Source: Desulfobacterales bacterium
Lineage (GTDB): Bacteria > Desulfobacterota > Desulfobacteria > Desulfobacterales > UBA5616
Length of the DNA stretch: 64,000 nucleotides
NCBI GenBank assembly: GCA_046483495.1
Contig: JAWODC010000018.1
Span: 35,846-99,845 of the forward strand
Direction of reading: 5' to 3'
Shown: positions 54,001 to 60,000 of the stretch, in pieces
Position numbering within the stretch: the stretch's first letter is position 1
Layout of the letters: every line of letters begins with the position of its first letter
Program-made: the position numbers

Positions 54001-57000
54001 TCATTGGTCTTCTCTTGAAGAAGACTGTTCACTACGAGATTGTGCGAAGCCCCGATCAGGGATAAATTGGCGCCGACAAGGCCGCTGACGGCCATCGGCA
54101 GCAGAAAACCGGAGCTTTTGAAACGGCTTCTCCGGGCCAGCCTGAGAACGGCCGGTATGAAAATACTGACGGCTGCAACAATATTGATAAATCCGGACAG
54201 CAGCCCGGGGACGACCGTGCTGACCAGCAGCAGCCGCCGATAACTGCTGCCGGCCAAAACGCCCAGACGTTCGGCCACCCATCGCACCGCACCGCTTCTC
54301 ACCAGTCCCGCGCCAAGAACCAGAATCGCCCCGATGGCAATGACGGCGCTGCTGCCGAATCCGGAAAACGCTTCCTGAGGGGTTAAAATATCCGTCCAAA
54401 CCAAAGAAAAGAGAACGAGAACCGCCACCACGTCCGGCGAAAGCCATTCAAATGAAAACATGACTACGGCTGCGGCAAGAATGCCGATGACCACGTATGC
54501 TTCAAAGCTCATATCGCTATCATCTTTATCGGCCGATCCGATATCGTCCTGAATAGGGTTCAGGTCACGGTTCGAGCTTAATGAATACATATTATTTCAT
54601 AAACGTCAGGCAGACACAATAGGTGTTATCCTTCGTGTAGGTGTTATCCTTCGGGTAAAGTGAAAATGTCGGCCTTATTTCCAAAAAGCGCGTCGAATCT
54701 TCAGCCGGTATTGCCAAAAGCGCCGCATATTCTTTCCGCGAGCGACGATGTCACAAATACAGGAATTCCCCCATTTTGTGCCCGCTTTACGGCGTGTAAA
54801 ACTATTCCTTAATGCAAGCAATGGATTTTTTTAGAAATCAAAACAAAACAACGGGTTTTATGATGTATATTTCCAATGACTTAGGCATTTCCCACAATCG
54901 GTGCATTTTTTAAAAGGGCGGATGAGCGTCTCATGGAAACCGTGATGAATGACATAAACGGCCGGCCGGAGATCCACACATGCCATGCTCCGGCGCCTGC
55001 CTCCGGTGGCGGTAATTTGCCGGAACCTGCAAAGGCGCCTTCCATCATGCGTTGGATAGGCATACTGACAGGGATCGTCGCGGCTTTGATTTTTTCGGCC
55101 GCTGTTTGGGCAAATGCCCGAATGTCGTCTCGAACACTTCCCGATTCCGGATCAGTACTGTATCAGAAAGGCTGTGCCGCTTGCCACGGCATTGACGGTG
55201 CCGGCGCCCCAACCGGTCGGCTTGGATTTGAAACGCCCATGCCCGATTTCACGGATTGCAATTTCGCAACCCGGGAAGCTGATGTGGACTGGATTTATGT
55301 CACGGAAGAAGGCGGACCGGCCCGCGCCTTTTCCCGAATGATGCCGGCTTTCGGATCGGCCTTGAACCGGACCCAAATCGAAAAAACGTTAAACCACATA
55401 CGAACATTCTGTCCAAACGAGGATTGGCCCCGGGGGGAGCTGAACTTGCCCAGGCCGATTTACACCACAAAGGCCTATCCCGAAGATGAGGTGGTGGTGA
55501 GCATGCTGTTCAATACGGAAGATCAAGACACGATCAGCACGGAATTGATCTTTGAAAAGCGGTTCGGCGTGCGAAATCAGATCGAGCTGATCATTCCTTT
55601 CGGGTGGCGTGAACAGGTCGAAGCCGATGCAAACGGGAATAGTGAATGGACTTCCAGTGTGGGTGACCTCGGTCTGGGAGTAAAACGGGTGCTGTACCAT
55701 GACCTCAAAAAGGGGTCGATCGTCAGCCTGGCCGGCGAAATGTTTTTCCCCACGGGCGATGACGATGAAGGATTCGGCAACGATACGGCGGTATTCGAAC
55801 CTTACCTGGCATACGGCCAAATATTGCCGCTTGATTTTTTCTTGCACTCGCAAGCGGGGGCTGCCTTTCCTTTTGACGGTGATCAAATGAATGAAGAAGT
55901 GTTCTTGCGTGTTGCCCTGGGCCGCACGTTTTTAACCGGACAATACGGCCGCAGCTGGTCACCCATGGTCGAGCTGTTGGGGTCCAAAGAGCTGAATGCC
56001 GATGCCGATGACCAGTGGGACTTGGCGCCCCAGCTGCAGGTCAGCCTTAGCACGCGTCAGCATGTCCGGCTGGCGGTGGGCGCCCGTATCCCCATGACCG
56101 ATACCGATGTCCGGGAAGCGGAATTCGGGGGCTACCTGCTGTGGGACTGGTTTGACGGCGGATTTTTCGAAGGATGGTAAACGATTATGACGGCGCATCG
56201 AAAATTGTGGATTTTGGTGGTTGGCTGCTGTCTCGTGCTGACCGAGGCGGACGCTCAAAACCCGTCGCAAAAGGCCGGCCGGCTGTTTGTCGCTTCAGAC
56301 CGGTGTTTGGCCTGCCATAACGGGTTGATTGCCCCTTCCGGCACTGATGTATCCATCGGGTCCAACTGGCAGGCCTCCATAATGGCCCATGCATCCCGGG
56401 ATCCCTATTGGCAGGCATCGGTCAAGCGGGAAACGATCATGCATCCCGAATCCAAACAACACATTGAAGACGAATGCGCTGCCTGCCACATGCCCATGTC
56501 CCGTTACACCGCCAAAGTCCGGGGTCAAAAAGGAAGTGTCTTTGCCAATCTGCCTGTTCTTTCCGCACGCACACCGGCGCATCAATTGGCCGCCGATGCC
56601 GTTTCCTGCACGATGTGCCACCAGATCCAGCCGGAAAACCTGGGAACGGAAGACAGTTTTACAGCCGGTTTTCTCGTAGATACCGAAGAGCCCCTGGGAC
56701 AAAGGCCGGCCTTCGGGCCGTTCGATGTGGACGAGGGGCGCACCCGGATAATGCGTTCTGCAGGCCGATTTGTTCCCACCGAAACCCTTCATTTGAAAGA
56801 ATCGGGCATGTGCGGGTCCTGTCATACGCTGTATACCTACAGCCGGGGCAAGAACGGCCAGGTGATCGGCAGGCTGCCGGAACAAATGCCATACCTGGAA
56901 TGGAGGCACAGCGCCTATAGAAGGAACCAGAGTTGCCAGAGCTGTCACATGCCGAAATTAACCCATTCCATGGCCATTACGTCGGTCATGGGACAACCCC

Positions 57001-60000
57001 GGAAAAAATTTTCCAGACACGTGTTTCGCGGCGGCAATTTTTTCATGCTGAATCTGCTGAACCGCCATCGCACGGAACTGAAGGTTATCGCGTCCCCTCA
57101 GGATCTTGAAGGCACAATGAAGGATACAATGGCTTTTCTGAACAGCAAGGCCGCCCGCATCGCGATAAACGAAGCTAAAATAGAAAACGGCCGGTTGACC
57201 GCGCGGGTGGAGATCACCAATCTCGCCGGCCATAAACTGCCGACAGCCTACCCGTCACGGCGGGTGTGGATTCATTTTCAGGTGATGGCGGATACCGGTG
57301 ACATCGTCTTCGAATCCGGAAAGATGAATGACGACGGTTCCATTGCCGGTAATGACAATGACAGGGACGGGCGAACGTACGAATCCCACCATGACCGGAT
57401 CACCCGCATGGAGGATGTCCCGATATACGAAGCTGTCATGGCGGGGCCGAACGGCAGGATCACCACCGGTCTGCTTGAAGCGGTAACCTTCATTAAAGAC
57501 AATCGCCTGTTGCCGCTTGGATTTGACAAACGAACGGCTCACCCGGATATTGCCGTAAAAGGCGCTGCATACGCCGATCCCGACTTCACAGGCAGCAAAG
57601 ACACGGTGCTCTATTCGATTCCCCTGGAAAACCCCCGGAGTCGGTTGACCCTTATTGCGGGTTTGATGTATCAGCCTATTGCCTACAGATGGGCCCAAAA
57701 TCTGCGGCAGCAGCCCTCAGATGAAACAGACCGATTTGTATCGTTGTACAATGCGGACGCCGGCCGTTCCGCCGTCCGGCTGACTGAAGACCGGCACCGG
57801 ATCGATGCCATGCCATGATCTGGATTCACCTGTCTGGTCCGGAAATGAACCGTTTTCTCAAACGGGTACCGTCAAAAACCGAAATAACCGAATGCGGAAA
57901 ATATGGTCAAAAAGCGACGAATAGCTGAAGAACTGATTGCCGAAGCAGAGAAAGAGTGCGATTTCCGAGCCGGAATCGCCGATATCGATGATGTTCTTGC
58001 CGGGCCTTCCTACAGGGCTGCGCCAAAGGAAGTTTGGAAGAGCAGCCATTTGGAAAAGGCCGCTCCATGGCTTTCAAACGCCCGTTCGCTCCTGGTGCTG
58101 GCAATGCATCACCCTGAAGATGCCCCATGGCTGGACCGGTTTGAAAACGGCAATACCGCGGGAAACCGCCGAATGACAGCCATTTCGGAGAAATTGGCTG
58201 CCTGGCTGCTCGAGACCCATGGTGTTCGTGCACAGCCGCTGCCGTACCACGTGGAAAAGGGAGGGGTGTATTTGAAAGATGCAGCCGTGTTCGCCGGACT
58301 GGGGGTGATAGGGAAAAACAACCTGCTGCTCGATAAGGTATGGGGACCAAGAGTTCGACTTCGTTCGGTATTGATCCAAGCTCCCCTGCCTGCCGGCGTT
58401 CCGATCGAACGTTTCGATCCCTGTCGCCAATGTGCGATGCCCTGCCGAAACGCCTGTCCTGAAAATGCTTTCGCACGGAGTAGATATGACCGTTCTGCAT
58501 GCATTCGACGCCTCGAATCCGATCGGGCACGACCGATCGAGAGCGGCCGAACCAATAGCGAGGGTTCTCCGGTTCTTGCCGTCGAATGGTGCCGAAGATG
58601 CGAGTTCACCTGCTCTGTGGGCGGAGAATAAGTCCTTTGTTCAGAACCTACCGGTGGATAATACAAAACAGCGGGCGTTCTAAGAGCGTTTATTTTTTAA
58701 TTCGGGTTATTTTCGATCCTTCAAGGGTTAAGTTGTACATCAATCCTTTCTGGCCGAATACAAACCCGATAATGGGCTCTTTGATATTTGTGGTGTCAAG
58801 TGATCCACCGGCTCCGATCTTGACCAGGGCTACAGATCCGTCAACACCGACTTCCCACCCGTCACTATTTCTGAAATTCGACAACGCCTCACGGGTCATA
58901 AAGAGGATGACGATGGACTTGGACTGGGCACCCAGTTGAAATCCGATTGAAGCGGCAGCAGTACTGTAATAATCCACGGTTTTTCCGTCAATCCTCAAAG
59001 CACCTTCTCCATACTCTCCGCCCACGCCGATTCCGGCTTTGATAACGGAGGGAAAAACCAGAATACCGGCCGCTTTTTCAGCCAATTCTTTTCCAACTCC
59101 AACATCGTTGTAGAATGTTTTCAGTGCATCATTTACTTTGGCATCAATTTCTACTTTAGATGCCGCAAAAGACAAACCATTCCACAGTGTTCCCAATGTA
59201 ATAGCAACGATAAAAAGACTGATTTTCAGTTCTGAAATCTTCATTTCTAATCTCCTTTATGGTGAGACTGAACCGAATTTATCATACCCGGTGGGAACAA
59301 AATAATAGAGAAGAGCCTTAAGTACAAGTAAAATTACGCTTTATCCTGAAATTTTGGGCGGATAAAAAATACGGGTAACCGTCAATAAAATTAATTATTT
59401 GAATTTCAGCCGATTCTTGGTATGAGCAAGAGCATAAGAGGCACCCAAATGCTTGTTCAACGGGCTTTATCCAAACCGGGGGATGGGCACGGGGGATGAG
59501 CAATTGTTTTGTGCACAACGCTATACTCATGGAGAATGTAATGAGAGAAGAACAGACCGGAAACCGGGACAAAATTGTCCACACGGTATGCAACAGTCAT
59601 TGCGGAGGAACCTGCGATTTTCACGTGCACGTCAGGGATGGAAGAATTGTTCGCATCGAGTCGGTTCCTGATGAGGAGGGGCGCCCCAGCATGTGCCTGC
59701 GGGGTCATGCGTATCGCCAACGGGTCTATTCTTCCGATAGGCTTCTTTATCCCCTGAAAAGAACCGGGGAAAGAGGCGAGGGGAAATTCGCCCGAATTTC
59801 CTGGGACGAGGCCCTGGAAACCGTTGCCGGTGAGATGAAACGAATCAAAGCCGCCTACGGCAATGCTTCTTTCCTCCATTTCTGCTCCATGTGCGATCCC
59901 CACATGCTCCATCATGTGTTGGCTTTTCACAGCCTGCTCTGCCAATTCGGCGGATATACCGCCCCCTGGGGCTATATCTCATGTGAAGGATATGCATTCG

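Follow-up and report, generated by a model that had tools for sequence, protein, structure and literature searches.

Cyc2 is the only fused cytochrome-porin family in print in the literature that we searched, and it serves as the standard marker of iron oxidation. Its motifs are AxPxFAR[Q/K][T/Y] before the CxxCH and PxL after it (10.1101/228056), and the model for Acidithiobacillus and Mariprofundus places the haem at the periplasmic opening of the pore, which the substrate has to enter (10.1101/228056; Keffer et al.). COG4313 barrels are described as channels for hydrophobic molecules; in the structure of one, Pput2725 (4RL8), an N-terminal segment nearly shuts the 10-12 Å lumen, and this plug is mobile and the channel mostly closed (PMC4493636). 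A third relevant system is ExtI, a porin encoded beside ExtKL and tied to selenite reduction (PMC5877670). Here we describe a gene pair whose most likely role is electron intake from a small dissolved compound, not the wiring of the cell to solids.

The two ORFs lie 6 nt apart on the same strand of the window, the 64,000-nt stretch of DNA that was analysed (Table 1). The positions apply to the window as they stand; subtracting the contig offset leads to a range with unrelated genes. A preliminary description had proposed a two-gene module, a monohaem-barrel fusion (A) plus a pentahaem protein with an Ig-like domain (B), and the ORFs, Pfam and the models agree with it. The length of 415 aa given for A is that of the ORF; the protein probably begins at Met39 (position 55047) and has 377 aa, a start that puts the CxxCH at residue 43, within the range of most homologues shown. 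The GC content of A and B (0.55-0.56) is the same as that of the flanking genes and thus gives no sign of recent arrival. A promoter and terminator scan of the locus yielded counts no higher than the shuffled level. In four salt-lake metatranscriptome runs, which come from two studies, contigs match portions of both genes at a depth of 2-8, and one bridges the A-B junction; as DNA carry-over is possible and the stretches without coverage carry no weight, we draw no conclusion from these data.

Table 1. Features of the gene pair. All coordinates are positions in the 64,000-nt window.
Feature	Position	Strand	Details
Gene A	54933-56180	+	Longest ORF, 415 aa, 1 CxxCH; fused cytochrome c / outer-membrane barrel
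A, probable Sec signal peptide	55047-55112	+	aa 39-60; by-eye reading, model helix 2-24, homologue leaders
A, class I monohaem cytochrome c domain	55140-55412	+	aa 70-160; Pfam; fold 7o38 Z 11.6
A, linker, predicted lumen plug	55425-55490	+	aa 165-186; conservation, overlap with 4rl8
A, 12-stranded beta-barrel	55488-56147	+	aa 186-405; model and fold matches
A, periplasmic C-terminal tail	56148-56177	+	Conserved; ends in Trp (terminal W in 112/120 homologues)
Gene B	56187-57818	+	ORF, 543 aa, 5 CxxCH; pentahaem cytochrome c, C-terminal Ig-like domain
B, signal peptide			About aa 1-23 of 543
B, five CxxCH	56304-56948	+	C40, C97, C141, C209, C250
B, Met66	56382-56384	+	Replaces invariant His ligand of other subfamilies
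B, Met189	56751-56753	+	20 residues ahead of haem 4; probable second His-to-Met swap
B, Glu232-Gln233	56880-56885	+	Position of MccSep Cys239 (haem-2 ligand) and Cys240
B, Tyr355	57249-57251	+	Position of MccSep selenocysteine U325; loop after ligand His349
B, Ig-like beta-sandwich with inserts	57153-57803	+	About aa 323-539; model, fold match

Every Pfam match of A lies above its cut-off (Cytochrom_C, 72-158; Cytochrome_CBB3, 70-155; Phenol_MetA_deg, 217-383), for PF13557 with 36.8 bits against a cut-off of 22. Twelve barrel strands were counted in the model (pLDDT 89, pTM 0.83, 56 sequences), whose best fold matches are FapF (Z 22.6), the COG4313 channel (Z 21.5), KdgM (19.6), and NanC (18.4), 12-strand barrels in line with the type assigned earlier. 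Haem ligands of both proteins were assigned by alignment, the models containing no haem: in A these are the CxxCH at C81-H85 and the distal Met137, found in 140 of 140 grouped sequences. A conserved pair, Cys109 and Cys160, would form a disulfide. The linker is the best conserved stretch of A, with P166, G168, N171, K180, A181, P183, E184, and E186 common to all three subgroups; judging by the end points of the aligned range, the overlap with 4rl8 starts at A-model residue 138, which corresponds to residue 2 of the 4rl8 chain. The modelling confirms that A joins a monohaem cytochrome c with His/Met ligation to a 12-strand barrel of the COG4313/FapF type, the lumen of which is probably plugged. 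Because the only haem domain precedes a barrel with an even number of strands, the haem is predicted to face the periplasm at the mouth of a narrow and probably plugged pore. In the model the extracellular loops are long and acidic and the periplasmic turns short and basic (net charge -8.7 ± 5.3 outside and +2.7 inside in 103 B-linked A sequences); loops of a distant subgroup are almost neutral (-1.4), and the acidity of the others may track habitat. A Trp-oxidation role like that of MbnH/MbnP was considered for the terminal WxW and rejected, as the second Trp is not retained in the distant subgroup.

This topology bears on two readings. In the first, the two proteins would together wire the cell, across the outer membrane, to electron donors or acceptors in solid form. 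It draws on the tight linkage of a porin gene and a multihaem gene (A lies near B in 73/73 metagenome loci with room) and on the presence in the lumen of some conserved aromatic residues, Tyr401 among them, that could aid hopping. A haem predicted to be periplasmic, at a narrow and probably plugged barrel, makes a wire unlikely, and we consider it very improbable: A has a single haem and 12 strands against the 26 of MtrB-type conduits (10.1101/228056), the 10-12 Å lumen is plugged in the nearest structure (PMC4493636), B is too big for the barrel and carries no lipid anchor (a lipobox-like motif occurs in just 7 of 155 leaders), and the A neighbourhoods examined hold no outer-surface cytochrome. 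On the same grounds, the self-contained transmembrane conduit of the preliminary description is not supported. In the second reading, the haem state, set by the partner, shifts the plug with no net flux, so that A would be a sensor or a channel gated by redox state. Nothing separates the cytochrome domain from the predicted plug, and the mobile plug and mostly shut channel of Pput2725 (PMC4493636) offer a precedent. However, a five-haem partner would be expensive for a switch and no signalling gene is linked to A in the neighbourhoods examined, which leaves this reading quite improbable.

The B model (pLDDT 88, pTM 0.90, 52 sequences) matches the pentahaem cytochrome c552 of Thermochromatium tepidum (PDB 5ZE8) at Z 25.0 over 351 residues (rmsd 2.8 Å, 21% identity), a likeness first noted at Z 16.2; the next fold reaches Z 7.6. 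B is homologous to MccSep across 324 columns (hhalign probability 99.9); MccSep is absent from the fold-search matches, and the homology rests on profiles. B is thereby confirmed as a soluble periplasmic pentahaem protein with an Ig domain and, by sequence, belongs to the MccSep/cytochrome c552/PtdA superfamily. In the alignment, its haem 2 (C97-H101) takes the catalytic haem position of MccSep. Met66 is found in 193/193 B sequences, where 14/14 ExtKL-type and 8/8 PtdA sequences have His; Met189 is equally invariant (193/193), with a His at -20 in 9/14 ExtKL-type sequences and placed one residue away by hhalign. Both Glu232 and Gln233 occur in all 193 sequences, Tyr355 in 60/60 B from loci picked by A, and Cys outside CxxCH is absent in 173/194. 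Of 10 Met-type relatives inspected that lack A, 9 combine the two Met residues with Glu-Gln. Together with Tyr74, Arg358, and Arg359, the residues Glu232, Gln233, and Tyr355 form an invariant pocket. An NrfH-type CxxCHxM ligand was rejected, because the spacing of Met102/Met104 does not fit. A His-to-Met ligand change raises haem potential; with two His ligands turned into Met in the alignment and the catalytic Cys/Sec pair into Glu-Gln and Tyr, B is probably a higher-potential protein with an open site.

The earlier suggestion that B may be an enzyme gains weight from a haem 2 that lies at the catalytic place of the superfamily under an invariant non-Cys pocket. Following the ExtI/MccSep pattern, the barrel would import a small substrate, B would turn it over at haem 2, and the A haem would act only as a tethered electron buffer for B; peroxide, NO or hydroxylamine, and a sulfur or aromatic compound are candidates for the Glu/Gln/Tyr/Arg pocket. 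Gln233 aligns with a His of NrfA that we take to be the distal catalytic His, and the arrangement resembles bacterial peroxidases, in which a haem with His/Met ligands supplies electrons to a five-coordinate haem that has Glu and Gln above it. Met-type B relatives also exist without A, in 3 of 24 strong B-type genomes. The link of ExtI to selenite reduction (PMC5877670) fits as well. Even so, we hold this channel-enzyme arrangement to be possible yet rather unlikely, since it leaves unexplained why a non-catalytic copper carrier takes the place of B at 23 loci, and why A keeps its haem and predicted plug when it stands alone.

With 8000 candidates scored, 5088 proteins match A at E<=1e-3. The best 80 A loci hold B in 68 cases, directly downstream on the same strand in 67, with at least 1.2 kb available there in 72, each within one of the earlier counts (69, 67, and 73). 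Within 1.5 kb of A, the 149 distinct loci have B (103), a copper protein (23), or neither (19), and the contig is too short in 4; B and the copper protein never occur together. The pair does not always stand together, and loci without B mostly hold another partner. The copper label changes at least five times across well-supported branches of a quick tree. With ligands in the pattern His ... Cys-x2-His-x2-Met (His/Cys/His in 13/13, Met in 12/13) that are in register with amicyanin (E 0.048), and Pfam recognising the C-terminal sandwich alone, the alternative partner is a putative amicyanin-like type-1 copper protein. Type-1 copper proteins are high-potential carriers. Away from A, 18 of the 20 top-scoring copper-protein loci have as neighbours genes for oxidase subunits, for haem A synthase or for a farnesyltransferase of the UbiA/CtaB type; paralogues in cytochrome-oxidase operons point to inward electron flow. 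The host genome has homologues of coxI, coxII, and ctaB. No third conserved neighbour of the pair was found in the neighbourhoods examined.

The reverse direction, from the partner through the A haem to chelated Fe(III), Cu(II) or a shuttle in the vestibule, would serve metal uptake or a minor respiratory outlet. The acidic vestibule of the close subgroup and the presence of A in anaerobic Desulfobacterota, including the host, are consistent with it. We judge it improbable, given that the partners look high-potential and that the neighbourhoods examined share neither a TonB receptor nor a metal transporter nor a donor of low potential.

In two genome samples, one centred on a Gemmatimonadota and the other on an Acidobacteriota member, A is present in 36/201 and 39/251, respectively, or about 1 in 6; in the host phylum it is found in only 3/301 and in the host order in 0/9. 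By record titles, the carriers include aerobic heterotrophs and also anaerobes without known lithotrophy. Bacteria from soil and sediment often have the pair. Eight 'uncultured Eubacteriales' rows seemed to put the barrel in cells without an outer membrane; in the tree they fall among rows of Aminicenantes/Acidobacteriota (SH-aLRT 100), some of their flanking genes recur at one locus (L027), and they are probably mislabelled. We found no description of the pair in the open-access literature, judged mostly on titles and the start of abstracts, in line with the earlier view that it is widespread and unstudied.

We tentatively favour a reading in which A takes up electrons at the outer membrane from a small compound in solution, similar to Cyc2 in function and built independently on another barrel. 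Either a small aromatic shuttle or a metal ion, for example Fe(II) or Mn(II), would serve as donor, enter the acidic outer vestibule and reach the predicted plug. At the periplasmic mouth, the His/Met haem would accept one electron and pass it to the soluble high-potential partner encoded next door, which is either B or the amicyanin-like copper protein from the family linked to oxidases. Two Met-ligated haems would make B a suitable acceptor, which could store electrons and deliver them to an oxidase or to an oxidant at the open haem-2 site. What the analysis shows is the architecture, the modelled topology, the ligand swaps in the alignment, the exchange of partners and the oxidase-operon setting of the copper protein family; from these we infer the donor, the direction of flow, the potentials, and the contact between A and its partner. 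Several observations speak against uptake: the rarity of A in the host phylum and the carriers without known lithotrophy, the lack of a quinone-linked or metal-handling gene travelling along in the neighbourhoods examined, the partnerless loci (19/149), the near-neutral loops of the distant subgroup, an invariant B pocket that exceeds the needs of a relay, and the COG4313 barrels, which are described as conducting hydrophobic molecules and have an acidic outer cavity anyway (PMC4493636). A bolder version, in which A is an independently evolved fused cytochrome-barrel metal oxidase that carries electrons from dissolved Fe(II) or Mn(II) to an oxidase via the copper protein or the Met-ligated pentahaem, is unlikely. 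If true, heterotrophs that abound in soil and sediment would have an overlooked way of gaining energy from metals, one without the Cyc2 marker motif, and the Glu/Gln/Tyr site of B would be a haem chemistry new to the NrfA/MccSep superfamily. Some carriers are in culture (Fodinibius sediminis, Rhodohalobacter), so the question is directly testable.

Comparison with described systems sets both genes apart. The Geobacter polysulfide reductase MccSep/ExtKL (10.1101/2025.11.18.688581; PDB 9WT8) is, like B, a periplasmic protein with five CxxCH and an Ig-like domain, and the pocket positions over haem 2 are the same. In B, however, Cys239 is replaced by Glu, Sec325 by Tyr, Lys372 by Ala, and two His ligands by Met; the ExtM-S partners are missing, the porin differs, and NF040886 scores 18.7 bits, below its cut-off of 250. 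T. tepidum c552, titled low-potential, shares the whole fold with B, but where B has Met66 and Tyr355 it has His and Ala, and its haem-2 segment contains a Cys. PtdA of the ptdABCDEFG operon (10.1101/2023.11.21.568154) is a distant B homologue (probability 99.2) that also adjoins a porin gene but retains the His ligands, and the ptd order (penta-porin-FAD oxidoreductase-tetra-cNMP/FeS-membrane-deca) contrasts with a two-gene unit. The preliminary description had considered that PtdB might be the same fused porin as A. True ptd operons were found at 8 other loci, and their porins, picked by ptd gene order rather than taken from the ptd authors' own sequences, have no CxxCH (8/8) and do not resemble A (hhalign probability 0.16, E 0.37). 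With its Met ligands and Glu/Gln/Tyr pocket, B adds a branch to a superfamily in which catalysis was first described for a member in 2025. MtrAB, MtoAB, and PioAB likewise place a barrel gene next to a periplasmic multihaem gene, yet the MtrAB type has a 26-strand barrel with a decahaem wire inside (10.1101/228056), and A-B has nothing of that size or shape.

Neither the COG4313/PF13557 channels (Pput2725 4RL8, TcpY, SphA) nor FapF, 13-14% identical to A, is described with a haem domain, and their neighbours are catabolic or amyloid genes, whereas those of A are redox carriers. Cyc2 is similar in design, with a signal peptide, one N-terminal periplasmic CxxCH domain and a fused outer-membrane barrel, and its gene may be followed by that of the blue-copper carrier rusticyanin. 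Its barrel, however, has 16 strands and is of the OprO/P type, and its short domain has His as the sole predicted ligand (PMC13741234), as opposed to the full class I domain and invariant Met ligand of A. Each Cyc2 motif is found in 0/120 A homologues. A second family on an unrelated barrel would widen the range of organisms exchanging electrons with the outside and show that the fused cytochrome-barrel design arose twice. With 12 strands and no Cyc2 motif, A is not Cyc2 and is, as first proposed, a second kind of fused cytochrome-barrel protein.

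The study locus holds gene A, which encodes a monohaem cytochrome c fused to an outer-membrane barrel, and the adjacent gene B, which encodes a pentahaem cytochrome c; each is single-copy in the host genome. Lengths of A homologues (mostly 375-395 aa) and the position of their CxxCH motif (near residue 43-55) point to Met39 (55047) as the start of A, followed by a signal peptide. Profiles place a class I cytochrome c at residues 70-158 of A and PF13557 at 217-383. In the A model (56 sequences; pLDDT 89, pTM 0.83), the cytochrome is followed by a linker and 12 strands, one bulged strand being counted once, and the closest folds are FapF (Z 22.6), the COG4313 channel Pput2725 (Z 21.5), KdgM, and NanC. 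The sole clear fold match of the B model (52 sequences; pLDDT 88, pTM 0.90) is the Thermochromatium pentahaem c552 (Z 25.0, rmsd 2.8 Å, 351 residues). Databases name A "c-type cytochrome" or "transporter," and NCBIfam has no family for the pair above its own cut-off.

Genes A and B and their surroundings in the Desulfobacterales bacterium (window coordinates)
Feature	Position	Strand	Remarks
Gene A	54933-56180	+	415 aa, one CxxCH
Gene B	56187-57818	+	543 aa, five CxxCH; gap to A, 6 nt
SLC13/DASS transporter with TrkA-C domains	52692-54590	-	divergent from A; not common to other loci
QueG-like 4Fe-4S protein	57903-58631	+	3' of B; not common to other loci
DmsA-like molybdopterin enzyme, then 4Fe-4S subunit	59496-62305	+	no evident Tat leader on the enzyme; no membrane anchor

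Of 8000 candidate proteins scored, 5088 match A (E<=1e-3); at E<=1e-30, the matches form 442 clusters when grouped at 50% identity. B is held by 68 of the best 80 genome loci of A, directly downstream in 67; conversely, among 80 metagenome loci centred on B, A lies upstream in 68, at another nearby position in 4, and divergently in 1, the contig being too short in 7. No third neighbour kept across A-B loci was found in the neighbourhoods compared. The pair is an accessory unit with a patchy distribution: even sampling finds the full fusion in 3 of 301 host-phylum genomes and in none of nine from the host order. Cultured carriers of A include Fodinibius and Rhodohalobacter. A matches (E<=1e-20) were found in 36 of 201 genomes sampled around a Gemmatimonadota centre and in 39 of 251 around an Acidobacteriota centre (a few are fragments; this sample's tallies, here and below, take in three unpublished genomes, none relied on alone). 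Among 401 genomes centred on an alphaproteobacterial one, no genome other than the central one has a B-type gene. Several family records titled "uncultured Eubacteriales" (L010-L012, L016, L018, L021, L064) cluster with Aminicenantes sequences, with flanking genes in common, and are probable mislabels.

In A, odd strands are followed by long, acidic loops and even strands by short, basic turns; both termini, and with them the cytochrome domain, are therefore predicted to be periplasmic. The mean net charge of the long loops is -8.7 in 103 B-linked, -6.7 in 18 copper-linked (see below), and -1.4 in 19 distant sequences. Distant subfamilies of A, 325-390 aa long and with shorter loops (L164-L178, L209-L217), come from Gemmatimonadota, Acidobacteriota, and one Woeseiaceae genome; most stand alone and five have the copper protein. 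The linker (residues 165-186) is among the best-conserved stretches in all subgroups, and the structural overlap of A with Pput2725 begins at Pput2725 residue 2. The first 14 residues of Pput2725 are described as occupying its 10-12 Å lumen from the periplasmic side, leaving a very narrow path, and its outer cavity is likewise acidic (PMC4493636). Because of this overlap and this plug, the haem of A, which the model itself does not hold, would be a cap beneath a plugged channel, about the membrane's thickness from the outside. On this model, a donor or acceptor must enter the barrel; substrate entry has been proposed for Cyc2, a known fused cytochrome-porin (10.1101/228056). We regard it as highly improbable that A and B form a wire to solids, and improbable that A is a redox-gated channel.

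The alignment of B with ExtKL/MccSep-type proteins spans 324 columns (probability 99.9). MccSep is described as reducing polysulfide in the periplasm; four of its haems are bis-His, haem 2 is bound by His/Cys239, and Sec325 projects inwards from the Ig domain (10.1101/2025.11.18.688581). From MccSep to B, Cys239, Cys240, Sec325, and Lys372 become Glu232, Gln233, Tyr355, and Ala431. The invariant His after haem 1 of the MccSep/ExtKL type, kept in 14 of 14 ExtKL-type sequences, 8 of 8 PtdA, and c552, is replaced by Met66, and the His 20 residues before haem 4 by Met189, where hhalign is one residue off; nine of 14 ExtKL-type sequences have His at exactly -20. His278 and His349 hold the remaining two ligand places. 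The Met189 swap is less sure than that of Met66, because His202 (184 of 193), His86, and His401 are alternative ligands. Invariant in 193 distinct B sequences are Met66, Tyr74, Met189, Glu232, Gln233, His278, His349, Lys350, Tyr355, Arg358, and Arg359; up to 80 of these sequences were found with a pattern that included His349-Tyr355 and Met102/104, but Tyr355 is present in 60 of 60 B proteins from loci picked by A. A His-to-Met swap raises haem potential, and B is probably higher in potential; it is predicted to contain two His/Met haems and one haem that is high-spin or bound by Glu. Gln233 aligns with a His of NrfA, which we take to be the distal catalytic one, and the pocket looks catalytic. 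Among 155 B leaders, a lipobox-like motif appears in just 7. Judged by sequence, B is a soluble periplasmic protein and not MccSep; we assign it to a new subfamily of pentahaem cytochromes.

Three of the 24 strong B-type genomes found in the Acidobacteriota sample lack an A match, and both Met and the Glu-Gln pair occur together in 9 of 10 Met-type relatives of B without A. A wider "Met/Met/Glu-Gln" branch of the MccSep/c552/PtdA superfamily without A (L226, L359-L361, L363-L367) has Phe or Val at the Sec place and occurs in Acidobacteriota and Alphaproteobacteria; some members carry a sixth haem and reach 750-1000 aa. One divergent ExtKL-like pentahaem protein below the family cut-off (L095) keeps the Cys ligand and has an in-frame TGA at the Sec place.

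Where B is missing, a secreted protein of ~250 aa often stands beside A. It has putative copper ligands (His, Cys, and His in 13 of 13 aligned sequences, Met in 12) that line up with those of amicyanin (E 0.048). Within 1.5 kb of 149 distinct A sequences, the partner is B in 103, the copper protein in 23, none in 19, and unknown in 4; the two never occur together (0 of 149). The copper protein accompanies both close and distant A subgroups, and well-supported branches of the A tree force at least five changes in linkage to the copper protein; since this tree is quick and unrooted, with long branches flagged, we claim no order of events. The copper family is present in 135 of 251 genomes of the Acidobacteriota sample. 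Of the 30 top-scoring copper-protein loci, ten were left out, nine because they adjoin A and one because its genome is unpublished. In 18 of the remaining 20, which come from related hosts and are not independent draws, the neighbours include haem A synthase, oxidase subunits, or a UbiA/CtaB-type enzyme. The best clue to function is the apparent replacement of B by an oxidase-branch carrier, which suggests that the A haem donates to a high-potential periplasmic acceptor; outward reduction via A seems unlikely. The host genome has coxI, coxII, and ctaB homologues and no copper protein of this family. In Acidobacteriota cytochrome-oxidase operons (L391, L395-L411), the amicyanin-like protein carries a C-terminal carboxypeptidase-regulatory-like sandwich, and its copper domain goes undetected by Pfam; the protein may serve this phylum as a so far unrecognised electron carrier to the oxidase. 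Two further loci (L392, L393) share aconitase X/copper protein/ABC permease synteny with A-bearing L370-L374; they have no A in the stretch, and their copper motif departs from the consensus.

We tentatively favour a reading in which a small dissolved donor would enter the vestibule of A and give up one electron to the capped haem; the electron would be handed to B or the copper protein, and from there to an oxidase or to an oxidant at haem 2 of B. Against this donor uptake, A carriers are not known to be lithotrophic, the pair comes with no membrane-linked partner, and hydrophobic solutes are what the barrel family is associated with. A less probable alternative, though one to be taken seriously, is that the barrel is an import channel and B, with its catalytic-looking pocket, an enzyme.

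In the available portions of the open-access literature, including PMC9040806, PMC5877670, PMC5566968, PMC8840924, and PMC11492766, neither the fusion nor the pair is described. A is not Cyc2: Cyc2 is reported to have 16 strands (10.1101/228056), compared with 12 in A; the Cyc2 marker motif is absent from all 120 A homologues searched; and Met137 is invariant in A, whereas His is the only ligand described for Cyc2 models (PMC13741234). A cluster of ~450-aa cytochrome c-DUF5777 fusions, mostly from Acidobacteriota, matched in the ESM Atlas by window 55131-56177, is possibly a third cytochrome-barrel fusion. The preliminary description had allowed that PtdB, the porin of the ptd operon, might be the same fused porin; this does not hold. 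The published ptd order is pentahaem, porin, FAD oxidoreductase, tetrahaem, cNMP/FeS, membrane protein, and decahaem (10.1101/2023.11.21.568154). We recognised PtdB by this gene set in eight alphaproteobacterial loci with complete or near-complete operons (L251-L258), one of them rearranged, with no tetrahaem gene in the stretch examined. Their porins (457-483 aa, no Pfam or NCBIfam match) have no CxxCH and do not align with A (probability 0.2). PtdA and B are distantly homologous (probability 99.2); PtdA carries Phe at the position of Sec, and Leu-Glu close to that of the haem-2 ligand. We conclude that A-B is a new form of an already known design, the fused cytochrome-barrel with a periplasmic acceptor.
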